From: Raillietiella orientalis
Lineage: Eukaryota
NCBI GenBank assembly: GCA_036172245.1
Contig: JAYWIR010000031.1
Location: 620,001-684,000, forward strand
Reading direction: 5' to 3'
DNA length: 64,000 bases
Shown: piece by piece, positions 18,800 to 57,900 of the stretch
How the letters are laid out: the number at the start of each line of letters is the position of its first letter
How positions within the stretch are numbered: position 1 is the first letter of the stretch
The notes under the pieces: model-generated
What the model was told of the DNA's origin: nothing
What the model saw: the letters and a program-made list of their open reading frames with translations, nothing else
Database searches by the model: none
Translations under genes and position numbers: made by a program

Positions 18800-19130
18800 T
18801 GGCTTCGAGGGTCCGGAAGTGTCCTTACGAGTTTCTCTGCAGAGGAGGAGGAAACGAGGAGCGCGTCCTTTCGAGCGAGCGAGTTCCCTCCAGAGAAGAA
18901 ATTCCAGGAGCGGATCCTTTCCGAATTCCCTTCCTAGAAGAAATGAGAAGGGGATCGACCCCTCCCCAGAGAATAAGGAAGAGTTTCCCTTCGGATTCCC
19001 TACCAAGAGTAAGAAAAACGGACTCCTTCCTCTGGAGCCTTCCTGGGTTAATTAGGGTGATCCTGTCCCTTCAGCTAGGGGGATCACCCCCTAACCGAAG
19101 TTACAAGCACCCTCGGGTGGCATAGATGGT
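18800..19130 (+). mobile_element. SINE-like element, 5'-truncated copy (array and tail)
   Basis: Contains gagaagaaattccaggagcggatcctttccg, shared exactly with ~25957 and ~50868, and the tail ttccctaccaaga/cgtaaga...ccttcctggg shared with the other copies. Confidence 0.8.
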
Positions 19131-22486: not shown

Positions 22487-23821
22487 TGAAAATGGACTTG
22501 GCAAACCTTTTTTTAGCATCTATGAGATCACTGGCAGGAAATCGGTTGACAATTTGCTTTACATCATTGCCAGAAAAGTCCAGTAAAGTTGTTCCGTCAG
22601 TTCTTGCAGGATAATTGATGAGAGTCAATGTGTTGAAGCATTGGGAGCATTGGACGGAAACTGTGCGCTTACTCCTTTAGCCGAGATGTTCGGCGCCAGC
22701 AGAATATTGCCAGCACAACCCTAAACTGCACCTTTCAAATGAAACTGTGGAAAGCACCTCTGAATGCGTAATCGCCAGAAACAAGATGCATGTATGCATG
22801 CTGCGTTTCTTAGCTTTTATAGGATCCTACCACCAAAGTAGAGGAAAGGACTTGTTCAATTATGTTGTTTTCTCATACATTCCAGAGATCAGGTTTGTGG
22901 AAAATGAGGAAAATGAGGTGCCTTCTCCTACCATCCACGTACTCGAAGATTTGCTTTTTTCGTAGAAGAGATGACCAGCAAAACGGATTCAACTGATTCC
23001 CAGGCAAAGCGGAATCTCGTGATTCATGAAAAGTTTGGTCCAAAGCACCTCCTGAGTAATGTTCTGAATTCCATTCACGGAACTCACCAAAGGCTCTCCA
23101 AGCAGTTCGCCAAAGAATGAGTTCAATGGGAAATTGGTGTTCAGATGAATTTTGGTCCAGAATAGAAAACTCCATGTTTCGTGCTGGAATGCCATTTAAA
23201 ATTTGGGGAAAATTTTTCCCGAGGATTCCAGTCTGGCTGTCTGGATGGCCTCTCCTTATTTTATCCCGTCTTCCTTATTCCTATTCCCAGCCCAGCCTTC
23301 TTCAACATGTTTCTGTTGCTATCTTTCAGATTCGTTGGTCAATTTGAACTTGAAAAAACAGAATCTTTTGAGTTAGCTGAATTTCTTTGGCAATCTGGCT
23401 TTCGGATCCAACTGATCGAAAGACACGGCATCAGCTTTGTATCTTTTATTTCTCGTTGCGTTTATAGAATTCTCACTGTGCTTAAAAAATCAATTTTAAA
23501 AGAAAATAAATTAAAAAAGGGGGGGGGATCCTTTACTAAACCATCTCTTCTTCCTCAGTTTTATTGCTTGCATCGGAATTACAAAGATGTACCTCGAAAA
23601 CTTCCAAACACAAAAGCCAAAAGTGTGCCGAAAATCAGAAGTGCATCGTGATAGAGTTAAACAGATGCTATCACAACGTGAATTATTCCACTAAGATTTA
23701 TGGCACGCTGAAGTCCGTGTAACAGCAATTGTCAGATGTTGCAATGAAAGTTTGGCTTTTCTTTCCCTACTGGAACGTAATTCACAAGTGTGTTGAACAT
23801 GTTTGTGCTTCTCCACGCATT

Positions 23822-23921
23822 GGCGGCCGTGTGGCTGGGGTCCTCGTGCGTGGCACCAAGAGTCCTGAGTTTCGAGTCCCACCGCAGGATGATCCTGGTT
23901 GGCTTCGGTGAGGAGGCACTG
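23822..23921 (+). mobile_element. SINE-like element copy A, tRNA-like head (5' part, interrupted by LINE)
   Basis: ggccgtgtggctgggg (A-box-like), gtttcgagtcc (B-box-like, 23869-23879), then cgcaggatgatcctggttggctt..ggcactg, homologous to ~42310-42352 and ~50540. Confidence 0.75.
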
Positions 23922-25624
23922 GCTTTTTACCCGGGTTCGCCGGGGAGTTTATTTAGAGTAAAATATACATTTCGCAATTTTTGTCCGACCACGTTCTTTT
24001 TGTAGATACCCTGCCGTGTTACCGGCTCGCAGACCGGTGAGGGCCACCACGACAGCAGAGGGGAGTGGCCAAACAAAAAGAAAAAAACCAAAAAACAAAA
24101 ATAAAACAATTCTGGGGGAGGAGGTGAGGGAAGGGATCAGGTTCTGCCGGGGGCGGTTCTCTGCACCCTTTGGAGGATCCCTGCAAGGTCTTGCTGTCAT
24201 CTGGGCTCTATCCGCAGAAAGTGGAGAGCGAAATGGATGGCGTCCCTGTCTTTGGTTCCTCCGTTGGTGTCGCTCCACGCCTCCACGATCCCACAAAGGT
24301 AGCAAAGTGCTGCAAGAGCTGCGGCTGGCTTCAGGGCATTGCGCACAAAGATGAGTCGCACACTGTCTCTGGTCAGCAAAATATTTGACGTCCATGTTGT
24401 ATTGACTTCGTCTGGCATTGCTCCATGCAGCCACGGTTCCGCCGCGTAGGCGGCCAAGTGCTGCTGGGGATGAGGCCGGCGTGAGGGCGTCGCGAAGGAA
24501 GAGGCGTTTTCAAACGTCTCTGGCGTTGCTGCCGGGGATCCAAAGGGTCGCGGCGAAGCCTTCCCAAAAAGACGGGAGGGCAACACAGTCCACTAGAAGG
24601 TGCGTAAGGGATTCTTTCTCTCTGTACCTTGCACAGATCCACACACACCCGTGTCCAATGATGCTGACCGACATTGCACGGGAGGCCCCAATGCAACAGC
24701 ATCAACGCCGACTCCTGCCACTTCAAGGGGAGGACACGGGTATTCATAAGCACCGGAGAGCACTGCAGGTCTTCCTCCGGAATACATAGCAGCACGCCCC
24801 AGCGCAGAAGTCGACGAGGTCGAGCCCTCGGAGTCGCAGCGTCGGTGAGCTGACCCGTCGTCCACTCGCCATGTCCTTTCCTCCTTCCGGAGATTTCCAC
24901 AGTAACCTCCCTTCAAGTCGTAAGGCCACTGGTACCCATATGCTCCCTAAGGGAGTGCAGCACGGTGACGAGGGAGATTCTGCTTGCCCACGCACTCTGT
25001 TTGCGGGATCTTCCAGGATCTCCCTGAGCGTGCAGCCGTTGTTGGTGCGCGCGTACAGGAAACGTCGCACCTGTTCCGCGCTTGGCTCCTGGATCCTCGC
25101 CCAAGTGCGAACGGTTCCCTGAAACCAGGTGCTATTGTTCGCGGGGCAGCACGAAATCCATCCGTTTTTCCGGACCAGAGTGGACACCTGCCGCAGGTGC
25201 AGTCCGCAGTGGGTGAGACTGCGTGGACAGCGCGCAAGGATGGTCGCGAGTCCCACGCTGACGGTGGCTTGCTGGACGAGAAGACGTGCAAGTTGGCAGC
25301 AGGTGGTGCTCCAGAGGTTTGCCATAAGGGCGAGTGTCTTAAGCTGGAGCTACAGCACCATCCACTCCAGCGTCAGGAGGAGCCCTGGGCCGCCGTCTTT
25401 GCGCTGGCGCACAAGTCCTTCAGGAGGACTCGAGATCTCCCTTCGCCCCAGAGGGCGATTCGTAGGAGGTCCTTCGTCCTCTTTCTAATGCTGCATGGCA
25501 GGAGGCAAACAAAAAGCAGGGTTGTGGAGGAGGGAACCCACGAATGTGTTCCATATCGCGGCCCGTTCCGAGGAACGGACTCTTGGGGACGGACCGAGCG
25601 CCTGCAGTGCTCTCTGAAGACGAC
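23922..25624 (-). mobile_element. 5'-truncated L1/Tx1-like LINE (post-RT region, CCHC zinc-finger region, 3' UTR)
   Basis: Minus strand gives ERAAIWNTFVGSLL, ALWGEGRSRV..RKDGGPGLL, LPLKWQESALMLLHWGLPCN and CARYREKESLTHLLVDC. Ends AATAAA-CTC-CCCGG-CGAAC-CCGGG-TAAAAA. GGCACTG flanks both sides (23915-23921 and 25625-25631). Confidence 0.85.
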
Positions 25625-26125
25625 GGCACTGATGGAAGCAGGAAACCCTCGGATGCCCCCGATGAGTGGCCGGGACTGGAAGTCGACCCTCCGAGTCCTT
25701 TTAGAAATCAGAATGAAGGAGCCGGTTCCCTTCGGTTGTTAAAATGGAGCCGTTTGTTTCCCTCGTGGGCGACCCTCTATCGCGTGCCATAGAACTAGTT
25801 GATACCTCCCTTGGGGGTTACCTCTCCAGAGTGTCAAGAATCGCTCTCCTCCCTTCGGGGAGCGACCCTTTCTTAAGAGAAAAAACTTGAGAGCGTTCCT
25901 TAGGAGTTCTCTTTAGAGGAGGAAACAGGAAGCGGTTCCCTTGCGGGTTCCCTCAGGAGAAGAAATTCCAGGAGCGGATCCTTTCCGTATGTGTATGGAA
26001 GAGGTTCCCTCCCAAGTCAGCGGAACGAATTCCTTGCTCCATAGCCCTTCCCTGATTCATAGGGTGGCTCCTCTGGGGTTTTACCCCCTGACTCTACAGT
26101 CGATGTTGAACAGTGTCCCTCATCT
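25625..26125 (+). mobile_element. SINE-like element copy A, 3' part
   Basis: Resumes homology to the other copies exactly where the head stopped (ggcactg..cggatg..ggaagt..aaggagccg..ctccagagtgtca..gagaagaaattccaggagcggatcctttccg). Confidence 0.8.
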
Positions 26126-29100: not shown

Positions 29101-29599
29101 ACGATAAAAGGGATAAATAAATGGCCAGCAGTAGGTTAGCTGTGCAGAAACAAAGCCACTCCCGAATCGGATAAGGAACTCCTCATGAATTCAAAGCTCT
29201 ATACACTATTCTTCATTATTTATTCCTATTTATCATTCTGTTCTCCTATCTAGAATGGAAAACGAACGAAGCATCGATATGCTATTTTTCAGAGTTTCTA
29301 TTCTATTTCTACCATAACATCGTAAATTCTAGCGCGTATTGAATTATAGGGCAAACATTTTACTGGACGAAACTCTTGACATTCTGACCCACCTAGGTCG
29401 ATGGCCTTTCGCGTGTATTCGAGAAATAAAAAATTCTCTAGCGTTACCACGGTGATTGCTCGGACCAGTGCCTTGCGCAATTGAAGGTCACGTTTTCATT
29501 TCATTACTTTTCCTATTTTTCATCTGAGTTTTCATGAAAAGCAGTTATTCTTTCGGTTTCTACAGTGATCGTAAAATCTTAAAGGCATGGTGTAATTAG

Positions 29600-30727
29600 A
29601 ATCAACAAGGTTGAACATCTCGAGGAGTCTGATGACTGAGCTGGTCGGCAGAGTTGGTGAATGGTCCACCATCGACCCGACGTGGCGACGAAAACAGCAA
29701 CTGGTCAAGAGAGAAAATTTGAAGATCATCCCAAAGAGCAAAGAACTCTGGCAGGAGGAATCCATCCTGGTAATCCCCTGGATGGACACCGTGCAGGATG
29801 ACACGAGGAGCTGGATACGCCAAAGGTCCGGAGTGACCTTGCGTGACACCGAAACATGGACACGGCAGCGATACCTACATCACTCTAGGGTGCTCCGTTA
29901 TGCCCAAAGGATCTCCGGCAACTTCACACGTAGGACCCGTGAAGTGTGGAAGAATCATCACGACTTCGCGTGGTCCCGAGTAAAGAAGATCAATATCCGC
30001 CGACTCTTTACAAAACAAGAAGACACCAGTGCCCTCCAAGATGCCGCCGACCGTTACGCTAGTAGTGGATTCAATACACTAGCGATTGGAACGGTGAACT
30101 GGAGGAGTGATTTACCACTGGACACTCAGGATAACCTCCTCATGTTCTACCATGGAGGCATCCTGAGGGGTTCCAGAATGAAGCTCTTCACGGGAAGAAG
30201 AGAAGAAGAAATCTGCAGAGCATGTGGTGGAATAGATACAAGACTTCACTTCTTGACCTTCCCCACATTGCAAACTGAGCGGACTACCCTAAAAAGGGTC
30301 ATCGGGCTAGCCAACGCCTCGACCATGGAGGTCTTGGCAGGGATGTCCCAGGGAACTGGAACGGTTCCCCGCTATAACCCCATGGTGAGAGTGACCATCG
30401 CCCTTTTCATCACCGCCATTATTGTGCGGTGGTGGAAGATGAAAACCACGAGGACGACCATATCTAGACTGGACATCCTGAAAGGGCTCATCCAGAAGGA
30501 GATCGGAATCCGGAACTGCGAATGAGTGCAAGCCTGGAACTACAGTCACATCCTGAGAAGGATTGAAGGAAGCATCTAGGCCCAAACGACCCCAAGGCAA
30601 AGGAATGCAGCAAACTTTTTCAGACACCCCAAGAAGTGAACTTCAGTGAACGTTAGTGAAGTGTAATTGTGAATTTTTAGGAAACTGTATGAATGCGATT
30701 GTAGAGTGAATGTTTAAGAAAATAAAT
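29600..30727 (+). mobile_element. 5'-truncated non-LTR retrotransposon of a second family (ORF2 C-terminus and 3' UTR)
   Basis: Uninterrupted 304-aa frame 29611..30525, basic and Trp-rich, with MFYHGGILRG..ICRACGGIDTRLHFL (zf-RVT-like CxxC..H, last Cys lost). The 3' UTR has repeated GTGAA and ends in AATAAA at ~30721. Confidence 0.7.
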
Positions 30728-40635: not shown

Positions 40636-42215
40636 GTTTCCCCTGCCTGCATGCATTCCTTACACTTTGCGCCGAATCAGCCGCTTTGGATTTCAGTGAC
40701 GTTTCCGCAAGGGCCTCAGTTCCCAGGAAGAAGGATAATAAGTCGCGAAGAACGACCCTCGTGACGAAAGAGCTCGTGACGAAATGTGAGAGCATCATCT
40801 GCAGAGTCCGGCAATTTTCATTTGAATGAAGGGTTGAAAAAGGTCGTTAGCTCCTAGGCAAAGTTGAAGAACGGTCAAAAGACTGTGGACGAGGTCGAAC
40901 GAGCCACTTTTGAAATCTCATTAGATAGGAATTCCGGAGACCAAGACCGAATACGACTTTCTGAAACTTGAAGTCTGACTTTAACTTCAAGGTAGGTTGC
41001 GCGCCTCTATTCCGTACATTTTTTTTTTTTCGACTGATAGCATGTGATAATGACGACGACCGAGATACTGGTAAAACACGGATGCCCTATTACTGGACAT
41101 TGCCTTATTGCTTCCAAGTCCAGACCTTGCTTTCCCATAGGTTTACGGTAAAATGTGCGAACACATTTTCATGTCCTGGAAAGCTTCCAGAAATGCTCTT
41201 GTCAGTGCGTTGTTCTCTTTGAAGCGACTGACTGCTTCCTGAACTTTTAGAATGTACGCAGTACTCCCAATGCTGCTGATTCAGAGCACTGGTGTCATCG
41301 GCAGAGAGCAATCAGAGCTCTTTTTTTCCAAGGCTGAGCTCAACTTAGGTGATGAAAGGGGAGAAGTCCACAGTTCCCGAGGCTCCGCGACACGGGAGAG
41401 GAATTTCCCAAGCCAGCAAATCAAATGGAATGTTCTGCGGCAAACTACCAACAAAGATGAGGACTTGGGATGTTATGACCAGAGAGATCAGGTGGACGAA
41501 TCACGTCAACAGCAATTGTGAAAAGGGAGAAGAATAGTGAAAACCCATGGAAACGCACACCGGAAGAGGAAAACAGCTGCTGACGGTAATTCGAATCCAA
41601 GCGCAGCAATGTTTTGCTCTTCCTTTCCAGAATTCTTGTTCGGGAAGATTCACTCCCTGCACTTTGGCTTTCCCTTTGGCGGCTGGGACTTCGGCATGAT
41701 GGAAGAGCGTCCGTGAGAATGCAAGCGTTTCCTGCCTATACCTACACGGAATCCACCTCGAATCAGCAGATCACGTTGCTTGCAACGGAAAGCTTTACAT
41801 CTGAGCGGGGGTGCTTCTGGACGCCTGCCTTTTCATTTCCCAAGGAAGGCCAAAGTTCCTGAGGGACATTCGAATTCTGCTAGGTACTCGTTTTCAGCTA
41901 GACGAGGGTAACTAAGTAGACCTCCATTTGGAATTAAGATGCACCGATGACCTCACTCTCGATAGCATGCAACGAGAGGATTCCATCTGCAGAGATGGAT
42001 GGGAACAGTTGAACTGTGGGAGTCACCCAAGATGACTCCTAAGAACTCATCGATCGAAACGCTCGTGGAGAAGACACCATCGCCTCAGGCACACACACGA
42101 TGCAACACAAAGAAAGATAGACGACTCACTGCGAAGCACCCAGGTCGAGGGAAGACGCGCTCTGAAGAGGCCGATGCTGCCCTACGTCGGACAGTATTGG
42201 AATATCGGCCCGTGT

Positions 42216-42660
42216 GGACGGACGTATGGCTGCGGTCTCCGCTCCTCATACTCAGCTCTATGAGCTCGAGTCCCACATGGGGAAGAATCGACGCTGAGGA
42301 ATGTCTCCTCCGCAGAATGACGCTGGTTGGCTTATTCGGGGACTGCGGCACTGGTAAAAGCCGCAAGCCGGATGTCTCCGTTGACCGGCTTGCGGGATCC
42401 GAAGTTGACCCTCCTGGGTCCCTTCCAGGGATCAAGGAACCGATTGCCTTCGGAGCTCCCTCTAGTTGTGCAATTGAAGCCTTCCTCTTAGGATATGACC
42501 CTCTATCGGGTTCCTTGAAGCGGGTCATGCTTCTCCAGAGCTCGAGAAGCGCTCTGCTCGCTTCGGGGAGCGGCCTTTCAGAGAAATTTGGAAGCGTCGG
42601 GTTCCCTTCGGAAAAATAACAATGGAGCGGCCTCCTCCGGGGTCCCTCCGGAGGCAACCA
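42216..42660 (+). mobile_element. SINE-like element copy B, 5' part (interrupted by LINE)
   Basis: cgtatggctgcggtctccgc head, gagctcgagtcc B-box-like (42262-42273), body homologous to 50540-50990 with fewer array units. Confidence 0.75.
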
Positions 42661-43599
42661 TAAGAGCGTAGGAGTGGATGCTCACCCCCCCCCCCCCCCT
42701 TAGCGGCAACGCTGTCCTTCATGAGGAGGGAGGGAGCTTGGGAGCAGTCAAACCCTGAGGTGAAAGTCTCCTGAGAGATCGCAGGTAGGGAAAGCTGAGA
42801 CCCCGAGTGCCCTTCCACGAGAACTGCAGCGCTGGGGCGAGCTGCTAGACATTCCTCGCGGAGACCTGCGGTGGCCCCCCAATGCTCAAGAACAGCAGCG
42901 TCCTTTTCCCAATGTGGAAGGAATCGGCAGCACTTCTGCTGTTGCACTGGGGTCTTCCCTGAAACGCACGCCGACAACACCGGGTGTTGTTGAGAAGGGC
43001 AAGCCCGGACTGTCTCAGATGCAGGAAACGGGAGTCCCTCACGCACCTGCTTGCGGACTGTGCTGCCCTATGGCTCCTATGGGAACGTTTCGGAGCAATC
43101 CTCCGGATCCCGGTTGGCACCCTCAGGGACATCTTACGGCTCCCCTTTGTGCAGGATCCTCTGCAGCCAGCCGCAGCCTCAGCAGCGCTTTGCTGCATCC
43201 GCGGGATTGTGGCGGCTAGGAGCGAAGCCAACGAAGGAAGAAACGCGAGGGACGCCGTCCAGTTCGCAGTTCGCTTTCTGCGGATAGCAGCATCCAGATG
43301 GTCCCACTTGGGACTAAATTGGCAGATAAATATAGCACCTAGCTGGCATCCTAAAAACGATGCAGACTCCTTTCAGTAGAGAGTGGTCCCTTGTCGATCC
43401 GCCCAAGGATTTTTATTTCATTTAATTTTTTGTTTTTTTCCCATCCCTCTCCGCTGCCGGGGGGAGCACCATCGGTCTGCGGACCGGCGACCTGGAAGGT
43501 CCATGGACAAACAGAGTGTGGTAGAGCCACGTGTCTCGCCACAATTTATGAGTTTCTTTTCAATTTCAAGAAACGCTCCCGGCGTGTCCGGGTGGGAAT
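42661..43599 (+). mobile_element. 5'-truncated L1/Tx1-like LINE (same family as 23922-25624)
   Basis: ORF 42984..43379 contains DCLRCRKRESLTHLLADC (CCHC finger) and PAAASAALCCIRGIVAARS. The 3' UTR has the shared hairpins. Flanked by CGGAGGCAACCA (42649-42660) and CGGAGACAACCA (43600-43611). Confidence 0.85.
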
Positions 43600-43755
43600 C
43601 GGAGACAACCAGGACGAAGGTTTCCTACGGAAAGCCTTCATCCTGGTTGTCTTACCAAGCGTAAGAGAAAAACAGGCCCCTTTCTTCGTAGCTTTCCTGG
43701 ATTCATGGGGTGTTCCTTACGGGGCCACCCTACAACTTGAAGAGTTTCACGTGTG
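43600..43755 (+). mobile_element. SINE-like element copy B, 3' tail
   Basis: cggagacaaccagg and taccaagcgtaagag are shared with 50987-51040. Confidence 0.75.
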
Positions 43756-46479: not shown

Positions 46480-47286
46480 CTCTCCGCCCACGGCAACCCG
46501 CATGGGGGCGTGTAATTCTTCTGGATAGGGGGCACCCCGGGATGGGGGTCCGCTTTATGAATCCCAGGAAGGACTCGGAGTCCGTTCCTCTCACGCTTCT
46601 CGCACCTCCCACCCTGGTTGTCTCCGAAGGGGAACCCCGAAGGGAATCTCGTTCCTCATTCTCTCCGGAGGGACGCCCCCCGCAATGTGGGGTGGTCCTC
46701 TCCATTTCAACTTCTCCGAAGGGAGCCCGGAAAGGATCCTCTTGTAGGAATTTCTTCTCCGGAGGGAACCTGCAAGGGAACCGCTCCTTTTCACTACTCT
46801 GAAGAGAATCCGAAGGGATGCTTCCGAAATTCAGAAGAGGCGTTGTAGATTCCCGCAGGGGAATCGCTCTCGCTTGCTTCCTTGCACTCTGTGAAGAGGC
46901 GACGACTCAGAGGGTCCCTCCCGCAACAGGAGGGTCCGCTCCTTTGAACAACTGGAGAGGTGCCTGTGAAGGCACCTGCTCCATCTTGAAAGCGGAGGGG
47001 TCCCCCGGTGTGGGAGGTCCGCTCTCCGTTGTGCGACTGGAGGGGGAACTCCCCACTCCTTTATCCCTGGGAGGACCCGAAGGTCGACTCCCATTGCTCT
47101 GGACTTCATCGGGGGCCTCCGGGCTTTATCCACCGCCAGGGCCATGCCCGAATGTCTCGGCCAACCAGCTCCATCTTGCAGGAGAAACTCGGAACCCAAC
47201 GACGCAGTGGCGTCAGTTATCTGCCGAAGTATTCGAACCCGCGACGCATGGTGCCACGCGCGGAAGCCTTAACCACAAAGCCTCCG
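46480..47286 (-). mobile_element. SINE-like element copy C, apparently full length (~0.8 kb)
   Basis: Minus strand begins GGAGGCTTTGTGGTTAAGGC (tRNA D-arm/A-box-like), then GGGTTCGAATAC (B box), followed by body, array and tail homologous to the other copies. Confidence 0.8.
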
Positions 47287-50200
47287 ACGCGGGCACATCA
47301 GTGGACACACACTCAAAGGAAAGGCTTTGTCCCTACATGAAGAGGTGAACTTTGGAGGAAAATCAAGAATGGCTTAGACAGTGGACACAAAAACTTGCCC
47401 AGCGTTTACACACACACCAGCAAGGAGTAATTATCCTCTAGTCACTGCTCCCGAAGAGTTACAGACAATTAAGGGGATGAATCAAGATTCGGATATCGGT
47501 ACTAGGAACGAGTGCTCGGCTTCCATGAAACAGGTTCCCTTGCATACAAAAGCACTTGTAAAAGTTTTATCCGCGCAATAAGAAATCCGTAGGATCATCA
47601 GCGGCACTATTTGAAAAATCTAAGGAATTTAGAGTAGGTCTTCCAAGTCGGTCAGTTTACCAGAAGCCGAGAACAGTAATCCGCAAGTTGCATTAGAGCT
47701 CATGGAAATGCGAGTATTAAAACTAATGCTAGAAACCGAGACTCTCTATGCCGCTTTTTATTTCTCACAAAAAGCCTCTAGCATGAATTCTGCAACTAAT
47801 GGCGTAGATCTGTGTCTTCCGTAAAAAACAACTGAAGATCAAAAAAACATCTGCGAGGTGTTTCATTTTGTAGTCTGCCTCACGGCATCCAGATTGTGGC
47901 GGAAGACCAAGCTTTCCTCCAGCGAAGCATCCCCAATCTAGACCTGGATGCCTCTCAAAGGAGTTCGTTTTGGATATACAGATACGCGTATAGAAAAGAA
48001 AGTACAGATTACGTAAAATCGATAAGTCTAATCGAACACTAACAAGACCTGTAAAACAAGATCACGGGTCCAGTGCTCTTACTCTGTTTTTCTTTATTTT
48101 GGTATAGTGAACTGGGTTCCACGCAGTAGAAGCGAGGTCACTTGAAGGTGACTTCAGATTTTACATTTTGTGTGATGCTGAGAGTCACTCTCGATTTGGA
48201 CAGCTTTTGATACAGCGTCGTCCCGCGGCTATTCGAAGGTTAGCAGAACGCAGTGCTGGAGCTGTCTGTGATGGCGAGCACCTAACTAAAAGGGAAATGG
48301 AGTGCGAGCAGGAAGCTGGCAGCATAGGAAACGGAAAATTTGCGCTGGATCCCTTGGAAAGTACGCGCAGGAATTACACAGTTTTCTTCCTCCGTTGCTG
48401 CTCTCGATGGGTGGAACCCAGTTCCAGCAGCAGCGTGGTCTTCAACCAAACTGATGATGCTTGAGAGTAGTAGGGTGTCTTGAAAAGAAGGCATTTTCTC
48501 AACCAGCAAAAACAAATGCGGCCCTCATGCGGTAACACCCGCATTTCTCGACTCCTTGAACTTAAGGGCTCCGGTGAGAGCCACGTGTTTCTGCTGCACG
48601 ACAGGGAAACATGACCGCATAGAGGGTCGTCGCTCCGGTTTTTCGACTCGAAAACACGTCCATGCCCTGCTGAATGAGCCTTGATGAATGAGTATTCGTC
48701 CCTAAAAGAATGATCTGTTTCCAAGGATGCGAGCTCAGAAGTGCAAGCTCGTAAGCACATCAGCAACGAGATCAACGAAGACGACCTGGGCAGAGCAGTT
48801 GAGCACGATTCCGGCAAGTTCCTTCCACAGCTACTCGCGTGACCTTCAGAAAAGCGACTGCGATCCAGCGGCTGAAGCGTGAATACTTTGAGAGGAACGA
48901 GCAGTGATTATATGGTGCAGCATCGAGCATCCATATGTGGCGAGAGATCCCGTTTCCATTACCCGATGGTGATGACACTCGATGGTGTCAAGTAGTAAAG
49001 TGCAGGAACACATTCCGCAAGCAGCCTCGTGTTAATCTTCACGTTTTTCGTAGTTCACACTGAGACCCCCTACGGATACTTGATAAAACTTTCCGTTGGT
49101 GCTGATCAACAGAGAAAGAGGGAAAGATCGCTAACGGAGGTTCCAGTGGTCTCGAAAATTGCATCGGAAAGTCTCATGGAAAACCGAAGGCTGGAAAATT
49201 TCTCCTAGAAAATTCGAAGAATGGGGGTGTTCTGGAAAACGAAAATGGTAGTCTTACGCGAAGTCACCGAAACAGGAAGCATCCGCAGAGAGGTACAGAC
49301 GGAATCTTTCATCTTGCAGTGGGTGACCTTGTGATTCCATGGGAGAGTTGCAGCTTTCCAGCTTTCCTCCGAACAGAATGGGGAGGATGCAGTCTCTGCC
49401 TCGTGGTGAAACTTCATGTGCTGGCTGTGTGGGTTGTCCAAACCACCGTTCATGTTCGAGGTAACGGTATGAGGTGGTAACAATATGTGGAAGACAACGT
49501 GCGTGGGTGTCCAGAGAGGTGAGAGTTGGCTGCAGATGTTGGAAGTGCTGCCTTGCTCGTAGCTGACAGCCTCAGTTAAATTCAAACGGAGTTCAAAGCT
49601 AAAAGGGATGACGAAAACGGGAGCAAACACGATCCTCCTGCTCCGAACAGATCATGATTTGGAGACGTGGTTTCCCACCTCCGCGTAGGTCGAGTCTTCA
49701 TAGCTATTCGGTCCTCGGAATGCTCAGAAGACGGCCCTCGCGATTTTCCCAAAATCCGTGAGAAGAACCGGGGAACTCGGAAAGTTGCCGAATCCATCGT
49801 TGCAGGACCTTTCAGAAGCTGAAGATGAATTTAATTCGACTTTGATGAAAAAGGCAGTCGTTGATCCAAGAAAAAAAAAAAAAAAAAAAGATGAAAGGCA
49901 ATCAGCAAACCCTATGTGAGCTGAAGGAGTTAGGTAAAAAAATAAACAAGATTTCCGGAAGATTTTACACGGAAGTTGATAATCTGAAAGCAAAACATGG
50001 ATAAGTTCATTACTTGATGAAATGGGACATTCAGAGGAAGAAGAAGGGATTCTGGAAGAACGTGAATGATCCTCTACAAGGAGACAACATCAGGATCGTT
50101 TCCGAAGGGTGGCATGCTGAGTGATCCTTGAAGGCCATCTTCGCAGATCCTGACGTCACACAAGTATGACATGCGGATGCCTACGTGAGACCCTTTACCC

Positions 50201-50440
50201 GTTTCTGTGAAGTCTTCCAGCCATCGACACTCTCCCTAAAGTAAGGAACTCAGCGATGCTGTAAGAGTGAACTGCAAAAATATAAGCGACTGATTCCCTC
50301 TCGTGATTCGGGTACAGTCGTCAATCCACAGCCAAACTCCAGAAGCATGGTCTGTTAGCACTGTGAGTCGGTGGTAGTCGCAACTTCGAAATAACTAAAG
50401 GTGATCTCGGAACATTGGATGGCCCCAGGTTACCTTAAAC

Positions 50441-51050
50441 ACCGTGTGGCTACGGTCTCCGCACGTGACACCAGGCGTTACGGGTTCGAGTCCCGTTCGA
50501 CTCCAAGAAATGGGTGCGCCGCAGGCTTCGAGTCGCCCTTCGCGGAATGACGCTAGTTGATCCTATGTGCTCCAGGGCGGCTCACCGGATGTACCCGTTG
50601 ACTAGCCTGGATCGGAAGTGGGGGTCCTTCCAAGAATCAAGGAGCCGCTTCCTTTGGAAGGGTTTTCTTCGGTTGTGAAGAGGGAGCCGTACCATCGCGT
50701 ACCATGGAGCTGATTGATACCCCCCTCGAGCGTTTTTGGCTCTCCAGAGTGTCAGAAGTGCAATGCTCTTTTCGGAGAGCAGCCCCTAAGAGAAACTTGG
50801 AAGCGTCGCGTTCTCTTCGGAGGAGGAGGAAAGAGGGAGGGAGCTATTCCCTTGCAGTTTCCGTCCGGAGAAGAAATTCCAGGAGCGGATCCTTTCCGGG
50901 TTCCCTTCGGAGAAGAAACGAGGAGCGACTCCCTCCGGGGTTCCTTCCGGAGAAAACAAGGAAGAGGATCCCTTCGTCGTTTCATTCGGAGACAACCAGG
51001 GCGAGGGTTCCATTCAAAGTTCCCTACCAAGCGTAAGAGGAACGAAACAC
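50441..51050 (+). mobile_element. SINE-like element copy D
   Basis: ccgtgtggctacgg, then ACGGG-TTCGAGT-CCCGT (perfect T-arm, B box at 50483-50493), body, and six CGGAG-initiated units at 50773, 50818, 50866, 50908, 50948 and 50987. Confidence 0.85.
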
Positions 51051-53134
51051 TCTGTAAAAGCCTGGAGAAATGCATCTGTTCTTTTGGGAACATTCCCAAA
51101 GGAAGAATCTCCACCATCTGGGAGTCATGCTGGAGCAAGAAGATCTCCGAAAGCGATTTGAGAAACACCCGTTTCTTGAGATATGGCTGGTCCCAGCTTT
51201 TCAGAATGCAACGGTAGAGGAAATCTTCAAATATTTGGAGCGGAGTGATTCTGGTAAAGCTGTCGGCACTGTGGACGAGGATGGAAGCTGAACATCTGTG
51301 ATTCTAAAAGGTGTTTGCTTCATCTCTCTGCCATGCGCGCGCGCTCGAAATGTCCAAGTCGTTCCCAACCAAAAAGAGCCTTTTCTCTTCTGCGAATGCT
51401 GTACTCGAATGCGTTTCTCGATTAGGTCATCATCACCATAATCATCATCAGACAAGCAATTTCACCACTCTCTCTGAACCCTTTTGGTGAGGAGAAGAAA
51501 GAAACCGCACGAGTGGCAAGATACGGAAGGTCCATGCTCCTCATGCAGACCTTAGGTCCTCGTGACGTGCGGTCCACAGCTACCATCAGGTGTCTGGACG
51601 GAGATGACAAATGTTTGCTGCATCTATTCACAAGAGAAACGAACCTTGTAAGCCGAGGTAATGAGAAGTTGGCATCCCTTTGTAAACATCAAAAGAGATA
51701 TGAATTCGTTCCTAAAAATAGCTTGAGAAACGGTACATATTTCTGTTTGGAGATCCGAACAGAGCGATGGATTTGATAAGTAATCCAAACTGTGCTCTCC
51801 GAGAAACAAATGGGATTGTGATAGACGGGCGTCATCAGAGCTGAAAGGAAAATGCTCGACTGATGGTAACGGAAACCACGCTGAATCCGGATAAAGGTGG
51901 TTATTGTTTCTGTTAATGTGACTCACAGTGCTGCTGTAAGTCCACAGTTCACTGTGTCACTCTGAGTGGAGCCCAGACCCTCAGACAGAATCATGACCAA
52001 TCGTTTAACTTCCTGGGATTTCCTACCGCATGAGTTGTAGCTCGTCAGCAGAATTACGTCATCACCGAGTGCCAATTTGGTATTCACACCTACGATTGGC
52101 TTAACACCGATTTGGATTCTTCTACAAATTTGAATCGTGCCCACTGAGTTTTGTTTTGGATCAGGCTACATTCTTGTTCTAGTTACCCCCGGTTCCACCG
52201 TTTATGCCACATCTGCCACAGTTTTGCTCTGTCTGTTTCCATACACTCTTGAATTTTTCATCTCAAGACATCACACTGGGCATTTCAGTAGGTATTCTCG
52301 CAGTTTGCATCTTTCTTGCAACTTCATCATATGTATCAACTTCTCTTCCTAGATTTCTTCCCTTCTACTTCAAACAGCTAGAAATAACCCCAGCCCCAAA
52401 CCTCCCTCTTTTCTAACAAACAAGACATTTATTCACAATAAGAAATAATAATACCTCGCGTTTCCTGCTTCATCTGAGAGCCAAAGAAACGCCCTTTCTT
52501 TTCCTTGCTCCTACTGAAGCCGTGGAACTTCTCAGCTTCCATGGTAAAAGCAGCTAACCTTACTAGCAAACAAAAGTCATAGCCATATCATTGGAGTTTC
52601 CCTACCTATCCACCTTCTCATCAACAACCATGTTCTCCATGCATAAAGCCCTATTCTTTGCTGTGTCCTTTTTCTGCAACAGTGCAGCAAATCATGGATA
52701 CTGGAACCAACTTTAGCAACTTTTGCATTCTCTTCTGCTGGATTTCAGATCCATGTGGAGCATGAAACAGTACCTCTCCTCAGGTTGCTTCCATCTCCTT
52801 TAAGAGCAGCTTCCTCTGCGATTTTTGTTATCAAAAAAAAGCAATGGAAAAGCAAACTGAAAATGGAAACAGATACTTACGTTGGCCAGCAACTGTTCAT
52901 TTGACGACGGAAGCACTTTACCTTCTAGATGGTTCTTTCTTGTAATCCCGATGTTTTCTATAAAAGTAATATTCATTATGATCAAGTTTTTAGAAGGTAT
53001 CTCTTCCACATCTGCTGCCGCCGAGTGATTTTAGATTCTTGTTTTCCATTGCGTGATCATGAATGAAGCTTAAATAAACAAACACCCCCCCAAAAATAGC
53101 CTATACAGAGCGTGTATGGAATCTTAAGCAACGT

Positions 53135-54329: not shown

Positions 54330-54925
54330 TGCTTATACAGATCCCCTACAAGGAGATTTGCGGGTGGCATTCAGTTCCCCACCACGAACAGATGCTTCTA
54401 GACTTCCAGACCGGCACCTGTGGCTGCGTTACGCAAAGACGCTTGGTGCACCGAAGGACAATCCCAGGGACGTGATGAAGCGCCTCTTCGATGCCCTTTC
54501 GCCTGCCGCATCCTCAGCAGCTCTTTGCTACTGCCTACATGGGGTTGTGGAGGCCTGGAGCTATACGAAAGGAGGATGGCACGAGAGGGATGCCATCTGC
54601 TTCACCCTGTACTTCCTCCGGACGGCAGAATGATGGCTCCACCTGGGGCATACTCGGATGGAACTTGCCGGCATCCTGGAAAGGAAGCAGAGGAAGCCAC
54701 CCAGTGGACAGTGATCCCTTCCCGTGCCCCCCAGAGTTTTCTGCTGTCATTTACTTTTATTTTTATCTTCGTTTACCCCTTCCCCTTCGGTTGCCGAGGC
54801 GAACTTAGCCGGCCTGCGTGCCAGTTACTCGGCAGGTTCCGAACATTTTCGGACGTCGTAGGGCCGATGACCCTACACACTTGTACGTGTAATTTCATAA
54901 TAAACGCCCCGGAGCTACCGGGTGC
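54330..54925 (+). mobile_element. 5'-truncated L1/Tx1-like LINE 3' end (third copy of the family)
   Basis: RDVMKRLFDALSPAASSAALCYCLHGVVEAWSYTKGGWHERDAICFTLYFLR is homologous to the other two copies. Same 3'-UTR hairpins, AATAAA at 54899. Confidence 0.8.
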
Positions 54926-57900
54926 ATGAAAGTGCGCGAAGCTGCCCGTGACGCATCGTGTGCGTACTCCTCTCCAGGTCGCTCGGTTAGAACGAATGCT
55001 GGTGACTTCGGGGGATCAAGGAAACCCGATAGCGCGCGGCCTCTTACGCATCCACTCGCTCCAGAGACCTCTTTCATCGCGCCAAATCACGCACAGCCGA
55101 GTGCAATTTATTTTCCGAAATGAGCGGCGGACTAGAAACTCTGCTCCTTCGCCGGTCCTTACTTTGCATCCCAGAGAAAACGAATTTCGAAACGAATCCG
55201 GAAATTCAGAGGAGTGCTCTGGATAATTTCATCCCGGTCTCAGAAAAGTCTTCTGCTAAATGAATTGGAATCAAGACTGATCACATCACAATGTTATGGA
55301 TGCTTTTCCATTACGGTGTAGTATCAGCTAGAGATTGATGATGAAAACCGCTCGAGCAAACGTGAATGCCCTTGGAGTTCTCATTTCAAAGGAAACATCC
55401 ATCTTCGGTACTCTTGGTATCCTTGCAAGCTAATGGCACTATTGTTTTTCGATTAGGATGTTTTCAGAGTAGAGAAAAAGAATTCCTTGGAAGATCAAAG
55501 ATCATACCCGTTTCATCTCGATGCGATTACCCTTTTAACTTTTTCTGTCTGTCCTGAGCTGGAGACAAGCAGGTCAAAAGCTTTTAACTGTCAAAGGAGA
55601 AATCCTGCTACTCACCCCAAATAAAGGAGATGAATCTGCTGTTATGAGCTTTCAAAGGGATGAAGCAGCACCAATGCTCGAGTTGTTTTGTAGAGTGAAA
55701 AGAGCGATACAGATCTTGTTTGTTTTGAATCCAAAAACAAATCACTTCAATCTTGTGTATCTGTTTGCCCATTTACCTAATGCATTCCAAGAATCAAATG
55801 GGAATAAGACCTGGATTGTCTACGTATGATGATGGGACTGTTGTTCAGATTGCAATATTGTAAAACGAAAGAGTCGAAAGGGATTGGTGTGAGTCTGCAT
55901 GGACCTCACCGTGGAAGGCCCTCCAATGAAAACGACAATAAGCAGCAAGCAGATACTTTCGAAGCTCGTATTCTTCTTATCTTTGCAGAATTTCAAGGAA
56001 CAGTTTTACCATTGAGGAAGTTTCCAAAGATTTATTGCAACTGAGCTACCTAAAATGTCAGAACGTAGATAAGGCACATTATGATGACAAAATTACGTGA
56101 ACGCAGATGTTTGAGAAACCCTATTCGTATCTTCCATTTTTCTATGTGTTTTCATCACTTTTTTGTTTAGGTACGCAAAGCAACTATCTGCGGCGTCAAG
56201 AGAGAACGCATATGCTCGAAAAAATTGATGATTTGCATCTTTCACTTCCGGCAACTGGATGTGAAAAGCAGCAGGTTCATGGATGGATCCTTAGTTGAAC
56301 CACCTCTGAAAATCTTCGGAACCCCTCGTCTCTCATCCTCAAATCTTGAAGAATACAAACGTAGATTCGACACATCATTTCCTGTCCATTCACTCCGTCT
56401 ACGTTCCTTTTCCTTGAAATTTATCTCGATGGTCCACCCTCGTGTGGTCCGTTCGGTACTACTCATCTTCTGCCTCCAGGGGAAAAAAAAAGAATTCTTC
56501 CTTGGTGATGAAATCCTTGATACGACCGAAGTTTCCTCCTCGAGTTCCCATCCATTTTCGTCCTGGAATTCCACATTGCTATTCCGTGTCGCCGTCCTCT
56601 CCAGATATGCTTCTCCGCGAACTAATTCCACTTTCCATTAGAACGTATTCCACACAGACGCATTTCTTACTTGGTTTCTTTCGAGCGTCAGAGGAAAAAA
56701 GAGAAACGAACATTCCATTATATCCGGGAACCTGGAATGCATCCCTCAACATCGAACCAGCAGTCATCACGGGAACTTCTACTCGTCTGAAAGGAACAGA
56801 GGAGTTTCAAAACGCAAGCGAAAGCCATCGTGGTGAAGGCGATTTGGTACTCGGAGGTATTTCGGTGGTGTACGACCTTCGCCTTGTGCTCGCACTTCAT
56901 TTCAAGATTTCCGCTCCAATTCTGTTGTCACCGTCTGCGTGTTCTCTTGGAAATTACAGGGAACCATCCACAATAATTTCAGCGTGATGCAGGACATTTC
57001 AAAAGCGGCAATACAGTAAATCTGCTCCTCTGGAAGTCTCGTTTCCGTTTCCATTACGTACCGACTGTGAGTGTCTCATTAGTCCCTAACTCGGCTAACT
57101 TATGTTCCTTCACCGAAGGCCCTGCACCGCTCGATTACCAGTTGAACGAGAATATGAAATCGCATTTTATCAACCCTTAGGATTCAATAGCATTTTGGAG
57201 ACCCATTACTTCTTGCAGCCTGACTGTCCCTAAAGCCAATTTATGTTTTCTTGGCATCCAGGAAGGTTCGGTGTCCTCCACTCGTAACCTCAAACGCATT
57301 GCCAAAAGCAAATCTGCGTAAGGAGTGTTTTCGCACTGATCCTAATGTGAAATAACATCATCGTTATTCGAATAAACCACAATGATAGCAATTCTCAACG
57401 TCTTCTTTCCTTTATTGAACCGAGTCATCTTGCGTATCCTATGCATTCATGTTGATCTTATGTATTGAACGGACTGCGGTTGAGATGCTGAAAAGATGAA
57501 AGCATGAGCGCAACAGTCCAACGTCTCTTGGGAATTAGAAGAGGCTTTCGAAGGTGAAACAGCAGTGACCTTCTACGCTGATCCGCTTATTTGAATGAAA
57601 CTAATGAGCTTGCTAACTGTACCAGATGCATCAGAATGTTCAAATAGTCCACAGCCGTTTGTTTGCGCTGCAAAAGTAATTTGTTTGAAATGCTGCCTCA
57701 AAACAGCTCCCTAAATATGCGCACAAGTGAATTCTGGTGTTTTCATCGTGCAGCCATCATTTTAGAGGGGGAGCGAGGGGTCACAACACAAAATTTAAAC
57801 GAAAGTTTAGTCAACCCAGATTGATCCTCTCCAGGCTTCGATTCCTTTTCTTCCTGCTGCAAAGTGACCTTTTTTTGTTAAAATTTTTCTTCACTCTTTG

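Follow-up and report, generated by a model that had tools for sequence, protein, structure and literature searches.

Many elements of the Tx1 clade show a target preference (Kojima 2015, PMC4494074). A sequence-only reading of the DNA studied here had taken it as established that Tx1 elements often target multicopy sequences, and two papers support this statement (PMC4494074, PMC3706591). Mutsu, for instance, inserts into 5S rRNA, Keno into U2 snRNA, and Dewa into the tRNA-Leu spacer (PMC3706591). In crocodilians, Tx1-Mar is found within the element Mariner-N4_AMi, at ~240 in the opposite direction and at ~830 in the same direction, in regions described as having "no recognizable similarity" (PMC4494074). 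The same source assigns elements to the Tx1 clade by reverse transcriptase (RT) phylogeny and recognizes a preference where one kind of sequence occurs in >20% of flanks (PMC4494074).

Here, we describe LINE copies that lie inside SINE copies within a 64-kb stretch of eukaryotic DNA, referred to throughout as the window. Nests of this kind are familiar from mammals, where L1 fragments lie in Alu or MIR; L1 itself has a poly(A) end and AT-rich nick sites. L1-group elements typically have a 3' terminus that is poly(A) or rich in A, a feature that does not serve as a formal criterion. A C-terminal zinc knuckle of the zf-RVT type is common to Tx1, L1, and plant LINEs and is thus not specific to Tx1. 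Outside the LINEs, Ty3 and the Dictyostelium TRE elements integrate next to tRNA genes rather than in them, at a short and fixed spacing. In the literature searched, which includes parts of the papers cited here, we found no description of a LINE targeting a SINE, and one may still be in print.

The window and its two repeat families

The window is rich in repeats and apparently holds few genes. Its GC content is ~44% outside repeats, 56% in the SINEs, and 67% in both of the duplications discussed below. The observed/expected ratio of CpG is 0.83, a slight depletion unlike that of a heavily methylated vertebrate genome. ARAGORN found no tRNA genes in the window, and no Rfam family matched anywhere along its entire length. 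Pfam was run on 150 of the 194 open reading frames (ORFs) of at least 85 amino acids and matched no family; the other 44 lie in the repeats under study or close to the window end, and seven ORFs of the LINE were scanned apart. A 309-amino-acid ORF at 29596 gave no match in a homologous-protein search. The evidence base is the 64 kb itself, together with one database fragment and the literature.

Self-comparison and an nhmmer profile revealed a SINE family whose element measures 0.6 to 0.8 kb and whose five copies, of 0.3 to 0.79 kb, are non-coding, dispersed, and present on both strands. Their sequence sums to 2893 bp, or 4.5% of the window. The layout of the SINE comprises a head, a body, tandem units of ~38 bp (...GGTTCCCTTCGGAGAAGAAA...), a tail (...CCAAGCGTAAGAG...), and a terminal stem. 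The SINE and LINE copies, along with the parts of the nest around LINE copy B, are as follows:

18811..19110, forward strand: SINE S1, 5'-truncated (nhmmer profile positions 380-665, E 7.5e-80)
23818..23928, forward strand: head of SINE S2 (nhmmer profile positions 2-147, E 1.2e-18), ending in GAGGAGGCACTGG (23909-23921)
23929..25621, reverse strand: LINE copy A, ~1.69 kb, nested antisense within SINE S2
25622..26094, forward strand: body of SINE S2 (nhmmer positions 140-649, E 1.9e-119), beginning with GACGACGGCACTG (25622-25634)
42212..42660, forward strand: 5' part of SINE S3, containing the tRNA-like head, the body, and the tandem units of ~38 bp (profile match 42212-42679)
42649..42660, forward strand: probable upstream duplication copy, CGGAGGCAACCA, which differs from the SINE motif CGGAGACAACCA at 1 position
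42661..43599, forward strand: LINE copy B, 939 bp, 5'-truncated, in sense orientation within SINE S3
42661..42793, forward strand: 5' end of the insert, 133 bp with a C14 run at 42686-42699; either diverged LINE or junction filler
42794..43379, forward strand: C-terminal remnant of ORF2 of LINE B, in a frame with TAG and TGA stops and the natural stop at 43377-43379
43380..43599, forward strand: 3' untranslated region of LINE B, alignable as far as the hairpin with both other copies, A and C
43600..43611, forward strand: probable downstream duplication copy, CGGAGACAACCA, the exact SINE motif
43600..43755, forward strand: 3' part of SINE S3, with the tail (...CCAAGCGTAAGAG...) and terminal stem (nhmmer 43600-43754)
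46506..47290, reverse strand: SINE S4, uninterrupted (nhmmer E 1.9e-165)
50439..51057, forward strand: SINE S5, uninterrupted (copy D of the sequence-only reading), which serves as the empty-site reference
54382..54935, forward strand: LINE copy C, ~0.55 kb

The head of S5 contains GGTTCGAGTCC, which we take to be a B-box-like motif; variants of it are TTTCGAGTCCC in S2 and GCTCGAGTCCC in S3. Searched alone against Rfam, the S5 head matched the tmRNA T-arm (E 0.029) and mascRNA (E 6.2), both far below gathering scores. These resemblances hint, weakly, at a tRNA origin of the head. Near-identical 12-mer pairs recur within the copies (9 in S5, 15 in S4, 7 in S2b, 3 in S3a, and 0 in S1) because of the internal tandem units. 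No metagenome contig searched contained a 22-mer core of the SINE, and no match to SINE sequence strings was found in the literature.

The LINE family has three copies in the window, and nhmmer and tblastn detected no further ones. The copies are 61 to 64% identical: copy B shares 63 to 64% with copy A (over 23929-~24840, minus strand) and 61% with copy C (over 54413-54924). All three have a common 3' end, AAAC.C.CCCGG-loop-CCGGGT, which in copy B reads CCCGG (43578-43582), CGTGT, and CCGGG (43588-43592), followed by T and GGGAAT. When the window was scanned for this hairpin motif, four matches were obtained against 0.08 expected, three of which lie at the LINE 3' ends. The three copies have identical 5-bp stems and variable loops. 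As an invariant stem allows no covariation, the hairpin is an inferred structure. Past the hairpin, the copies carry 6 to 9 unrelated bases (GGGAAT in B, AAAAAG and GCATGAAAG in the other two), and a poly(A) tract is found at the 3' end of none of the three.

At their 5' ends, the copies are unlike one another, with ~1.69, 0.94, and 0.55 kb kept. A shared 3' end combined with differing 5' ends classically marks LINE copies that have been truncated from the 5' side. Two of the three (A and B) have a flanking target-site duplication, as described below. No match to the reverse transcriptase (RVT) family of Pfam was detected in the seven LINE ORFs or in the 150 scanned ORFs of the window. Since all three copies are truncated downstream of the RT region, this result is no evidence against the LINE class. 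The N-terminal region is likewise absent from all three copies, and the window holds no endonuclease sequence.

The coding remnant of LINE B matches copy A (tblastn E 3e-19) and contains a zinc knuckle, CX2CX7HX4C, at 43011-43061 (peptide ...LFPMWKESAALLLLHWGLP-NARRQ...CLRCRKRESLTHLLADC...). The Pfam zf-RVT model matched LINE B below threshold (E 0.087, 13.9 bits versus a cut-off of 27.5), and the zf-RVT set supplied 18 of 30 feature matches for LINE B in a protein Atlas, which we treat as a lead only. A HMMER search of 1.84 billion representatives returned one true relative, an 87-amino-acid C-terminal fragment (P0002) with 59% identity; another match, P0003, is a repeat-rich spider protein and was judged spurious. 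The homologous-protein search yielded no match of the LINE B ORF to longer proteins, and the search of solved structures yielded no relevant match. On metagenome contigs, 580 pattern stretches matched in the search for the LINE protein profile, none of which was confirmed. To judge from its sequence, LINE B is a LINE with a C-terminus that appears to be of the L1/Tx1/plant type, which the window does not narrow down to the Tx1 clade. Hardly any trace of either family, LINE or SINE, exists in the public collections of proteins and metagenomes that were searched.

Nested copies and the flank of copy C

LINE B is nested in S3. The SINE profile matches directly on both sides of it (E 1e-102 upstream and E 2.5e-32 downstream), which confirms the nesting. 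A SINE-LINE chimera produced by template switching is ruled out, as the SINE resumes past LINE B. The 5' part of S3 aligns with S5 by BLAST at 62.9% identity over 410 bp. The sequence-only reading had described a 0.94-kb sense-strand LINE bracketed by two copies of a short sequence that is present once in S5, and both parts of this description held. The two 12-mers, CGGAGGCAACCA at 42649-42660 and CGGAGACAACCA at 43600-43611, are identical at 11 of 12 positions, and exact CGGAGACAACCA occurs only at 43600, at 46615 (minus strand, in S4), and at 50987 (in S5). The 3' end of LINE B, which is set independently by copies A and C, falls 6 bases before CGGAGACAACCA at 43600. A 12-mer pair with at most one mismatch in matching junction zones was found in 4 of 3000 random pairs of zones placed 0.94 kb apart.

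The 5' junction of copy B is not fully certain, because neither family matches the opening 133 bp of the insert beyond the level of shuffles and the SINE profile extends into them. Against LINE A, 232 of 300 shuffles reach the score of 42661-42793, and against SINE S5, 15 of 300 do so. Weak similarity to the profile of uninterrupted SINE copies continues as far as 42682, 22 bp beyond the first 12-mer.

In the other nest, the S2 head covers the profile as far as position 147, and coverage by the S2 body starts again from position 140, such that positions 140-147 are found on both sides of LINE A. This overlap points to a duplication at LINE A, where the flanks GAGGAGGCACTGG and GACGACGGCACTG form a looser duplication of ~13 bp (~10 of 14 columns). 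LINE A also contains an internal tandem duplication (24375-24521 versus 24209-24370).

We also considered whether the LINE and SINE might be a tail-sharing pair, in which case the S3 tail after copy B would be the LINE's own end. This possibility was rejected, as none of 18 alignments of LINE tails with the SINE rose above the range of shuffles; the highest score among the 18 was reached in 6 of 200 shuffles (uncorrected). Having no such sequence in common, the two families are not tail-sharing partners.

LINE C shows no detectable duplication, and no repeat candidates were found at its flanks. Its downstream flank had been described as similar to the SINE; the 19-mer cited for this similarity is present, but its identity as SINE sequence is not supported by the profile or by a chain test. 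A 44-bp SINE-like match 75 bp downstream of LINE C is marginal (score 37 to S3 versus a maximum of 35 in 100 shuffles). The match of this flank to S2b is borderline (35 versus a shuffle maximum of 33), and those to the other three SINE copies are within noise. The SINE profile gave no match at this flank even at very permissive thresholds, and in a collinear-chain test, 39 of 300 control regions did as well or better. On the strength of the blank profile searches and the nonsignificant chain test, a SINE relic beside LINE C was discarded. The 200 bp past LINE C have a GC content of 57%, placing them in the top 1.8% of non-repeat windows.

A possible insertion preference, base composition, and rival explanations

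The starting point for a possible preference was the count of two LINE copies out of three inside a SINE that covers about 5% of the window, and nhmmer and tblastn bear out this count at a cover of 4.5%. If insertion were uniform, the probability of finding at least two of three copies in SINEs would be 0.0066 at this cover. The probability is higher when the target space is matched for GC, because the SINEs are GC-rich islands. With only 12-mers of at least 50 to 66% GC eligible, it is 0.018 to 0.065, and with 100-bp contexts of at least 50 to 58% GC eligible, it is 0.09 to 0.36, at thresholds that were picked after the two sites had been seen. SINEs make up 8 to 15% of GC-rich 12-mers (15% at ≥66% GC) and 11 to 31% of GC-rich 30-mers; among 100-bp windows with ≥58% GC, their share reaches 41%. 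The rise from 0.0066 under uniform insertion to 0.018 to 0.36 with GC-eligible targets bears on the alternative that the sequence-only reading had itself named, insertion that follows local GC content. The data are accounted for about equally well by recognition of the SINE and by a bias toward GC-rich or repeat DNA or a higher survival of copies that land in junk DNA. Three copies, with GC as a confounder, are too few to establish that the LINE targets the SINE.

The two insertion sites differ in both position and orientation, as the sequence-only reading had stated: copy A lies antisense at profile position ~147, and copy B lies in sense orientation in the last tandem unit. The sites differ in sequence as well, and no nick-site motif common to both in the LINE's orientation was seen. 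On the SINE strand, the upstream duplication copy of each site contains the heptamer GGAGGCA. Relative to the LINE, however, its sense is opposite at the two sites, and its form at site B deviates from the intact-copy motif CGGAGACAACCA; we treat it as a coincidence. Both sites lie inside the SINE, ~100 bp and ~550 to 600 bp downstream of the B-box-like motif.

The probable explanation, in our view, is ordinary nested retrotransposition of two 5'-truncated copies of one LINE family into existing SINE copies. It is supported by the co-terminal 3' hairpins, the SINE sequence on both sides, the duplications, the dissimilarity of the two sites, the GC-rich targets, and the GC-rich patch that LINE C adjoins and that none of the tests marks as SINE. 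Target-primed reverse transcription would have placed the LINE copies within pre-existing SINEs, each with a duplication of 12 to 13 bp. For copy B, an endonuclease would have nicked the SINE at ...CCCTC|CGGAGACAACCA, reverse transcription would have started from the 3' end of the LINE RNA and stopped, or been cut short, after ~0.8 to 0.94 kb, and a staggered second nick would have produced the 12-bp duplication. The presence of two of three copies in SINEs would then reflect chance plus a general bias toward GC-rich or repeat DNA, acting at insertion or through survival in junk DNA. The anatomy of the nests, the duplications, the common 3' end, and the differing 5' ends are read directly from the DNA; from general knowledge of LINEs, we infer the mechanism and likewise the absence of specific targeting.

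A different account of the LINE B junctions holds that the two 12-mers are adjacent paralogous tandem units and that the LINE entered without a duplication or with a loss of ~30 to 100 bp of SINE. Within S5, CGGAGAAAACAA at 50948 is indeed a paralogue of CGGAGACAACCA with 2 mismatches, 39 bp upstream of it, and BLAST pairs 42598-42666 with 50897-50966 of S5, a segment that holds CGGAGAAAACAA. Many near-identical 12-mer pairs occur inside SINE copies in any case. Moreover, the profile of uninterrupted copies aligns 42661-42682 with the conserved core AAGAAATTCC-AGGAGCGGATCCT, and the 31-mer core, exact in S1, S2, and S5, is otherwise missing from S3. That core-like match is not above shuffles, however, and four features favor a true target-site duplication. 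Among the units of intact copies, the last one alone carries the diagnostic signature CAACCA; the first 12-mer agrees with the last unit at 11 of 12 positions but with the paralogue at only 9 of 12; the left context of CGGAGGCAACCA agrees with the last tandem unit of S4 (an alignment judged by eye); and S3 minus one 12-mer copy has the single-unit architecture of S1. The paralogous arrangement would, in addition, need an 8-bp insertion that recreated the signature of the last unit by chance, and we consider it quite improbable. That the SINE-LINE-SINE order is an assembly chimera or a product of repeat recombination is very improbable indeed. The arrangement is known from the assembly alone, yet both junctions are clean, the S3 halves are complementary in profile coordinates, and a short duplication lies on both sides of the insert. 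The same anatomy recurs in a second, independent nest 18 kb away, and copies that are 61 to 64% identical are too diverged to be mis-assembled together.

Compared with ordinary nesting, a true target preference would require that the endonuclease or integration complex favor this SINE at two or more hot regions and in either orientation. This is unlikely, although several observations speak for it: the uniform-insertion probability given above, the marginal SINE-like match near LINE C, and the fact that both duplications belong to one length class of 12 to 13 bp. Multicopy targets are also known for other Tx1 elements (PMC4494074; PMC3706591), and Tx1-Mar in Mariner-N4_AMi provides a precedent by which the proposed pattern may be regarded as plausible but unproven (PMC4494074). 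Against it, the hypothesis was born from the same three copies on which it would be judged, and the enrichment is largely gone once the target space is GC-matched. In addition, the flank of LINE C fails the profile and chain tests, the sites have no common motif in the LINE's orientation, and none of the three copies carries the poly(A) reported for SINEU mobilized by Tx1-Mar (PMC4494074). In its full form, the proposal is that the LINE prefers one tRNA-like SINE family at two or more unrelated hot regions in opposite orientations, which would make this the first SINE known as the safe harbor of a LINE, analogous to Mariner elements for Tx1-Mar. We regard this form as rather unlikely.

Comparison with known systems

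As it stands, the window documents a LINE family and a SINE family that coexist and nest, which is a matter of routine repeat annotation. If the preference were true, a SINE would join the safe harbors of L1/Tx1-type elements, which include rRNA, snRNA, tRNA spacers, microsatellites, and DNA transposons. It would also be a second instance in which another mobile element is targeted at several sites and in two orientations, with a bearing on target recognition by LINE endonucleases or integration complexes and on the design of targeted integration.

The nests resemble those of L1 in Alu or MIR in their 5' truncation, in duplications within the 7- to 20-bp range, and in the occurrence of either orientation. 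Unlike L1, the LINE of the window has a GC hairpin at its 3' end, and its duplications have 67% GC in both nests. Ty3 and TRE fit the idea of a Pol III-related preference that the sequence-only reading had put forward; the sites in the window, at the distances from the B-box-like motif given above, instead lie inside the SINE.

The 3' end recalls the stringent-type L2 LINEs of zebrafish, which likewise have a 3'-terminal stem-loop, through which they are recognized, and no poly(A) (PMC4176376). Those elements belong to the L2 clade (PMC4176376), whereas the C-terminus of ORF2 in the window has a zf-RVT-like CX2CX7HX4C knuckle. Tx1L, which inserts in Tx1D of Xenopus, and Keno, Mutsu, Dewa, Kibi, and Koshi are comparable as L1-related elements with multicopy targets (PMC4494074, PMC3706591). 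As summarized in these sources, however, each uses one defined site and orientation per target (PMC4494074, PMC3706591), and the two sites in the window share neither. Tx1-Mar is known from many copies, has a Mariner DNA transposon as its target, was placed in its clade by RT phylogeny, and is associated with poly(A) on the co-mobilized SINEU (PMC4494074). The LINE of the window, unlike Tx1-Mar, is represented by three copies, has a SINE as the host sequence, and displays neither RT sequence nor poly(A). Like Tx1-Mar, it lies within another transposon, in two dissimilar regions and in opposite orientations (PMC4494074).

Conserved core and divergence of the SINE copies

Three of the five tRNA-like SINE copies in the window, the 5'-truncated S1, the LINE-interrupted S2 and the uninterrupted S5, share an identical 31-mer, GAGAAGAAATTCCAGGAGCGGATCCTTTCCG, at the following positions:

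18893-18923, 31-mer in S1
25957-25987, 31-mer in S2
50868-50898, 31-mer in S5

The version of this core in S4 carries more than 3 differences, and S3 is without a clear version. The 31-mer is identical in S1, S2 and S5 despite a mutual identity of only ∼66 to 72% outside it. Much of the divergence among SINE copies may thus go back to source elements that had already diverged around a conserved core, and not to decay after insertion.

Sequences at the LINE insertion sites

Both upstream target-site duplication copies, at 23909-23921 (LINE copy A, within S2) and 42649-42660 (LINE copy B, within S3), contain GGAGGCA on the SINE strand. Viewed from the LINEs, the motif runs in opposite sense at the two sites, and at the insertion point of copy B its G is a deviation from what intact SINE copies have there; the shared heptamer is probably a coincidence. 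The 5' end of insert B, a stretch assigned to neither LINE nor SINE, includes a run of 14 C residues (42686-42699) that lies 26 bp after the upstream duplication copy and could be junction filler or LINE sequence. Immediately downstream of LINE copy C, positions 54936-55135 are 57% GC, versus a 44% background, and include a marginal SINE-like match of 44 bp; this patch could be the relic of an old GC-rich repeat.

Coding segments of LINE copy A and of a possible second LINE family

In copy A, on the minus strand, the segment that codes for the very last part of the ORF2 C-terminus is duplicated in tandem (24209-24370 and 24375-24521), and P0002, an 87-amino-acid database fragment, matches both stretches. 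A further open frame was detected:

29596-30525, plus strand, 309-amino-acid frame with a C..C...H-type motif (…EEICRACGGIDTRLHFL…)

This frame gave no Pfam family and no match in a word-based protein search; it resembles the C-terminal end of a LINE from another family.

Other repeats and base composition

Two direct repeat pairs are related to neither SINE nor LINE: 6120-6268/6865-7024 (76% over 161 bp) and 16953-17046/18117-18210 (88% over 94 bp).

For the whole window, observed/expected ratios are 0.83 for CpG and 0.52 for TpA. Within the repeats, CpGs are retained (0.72 to 0.98). These values speak against a host that heavily methylates its repeats at CpG.
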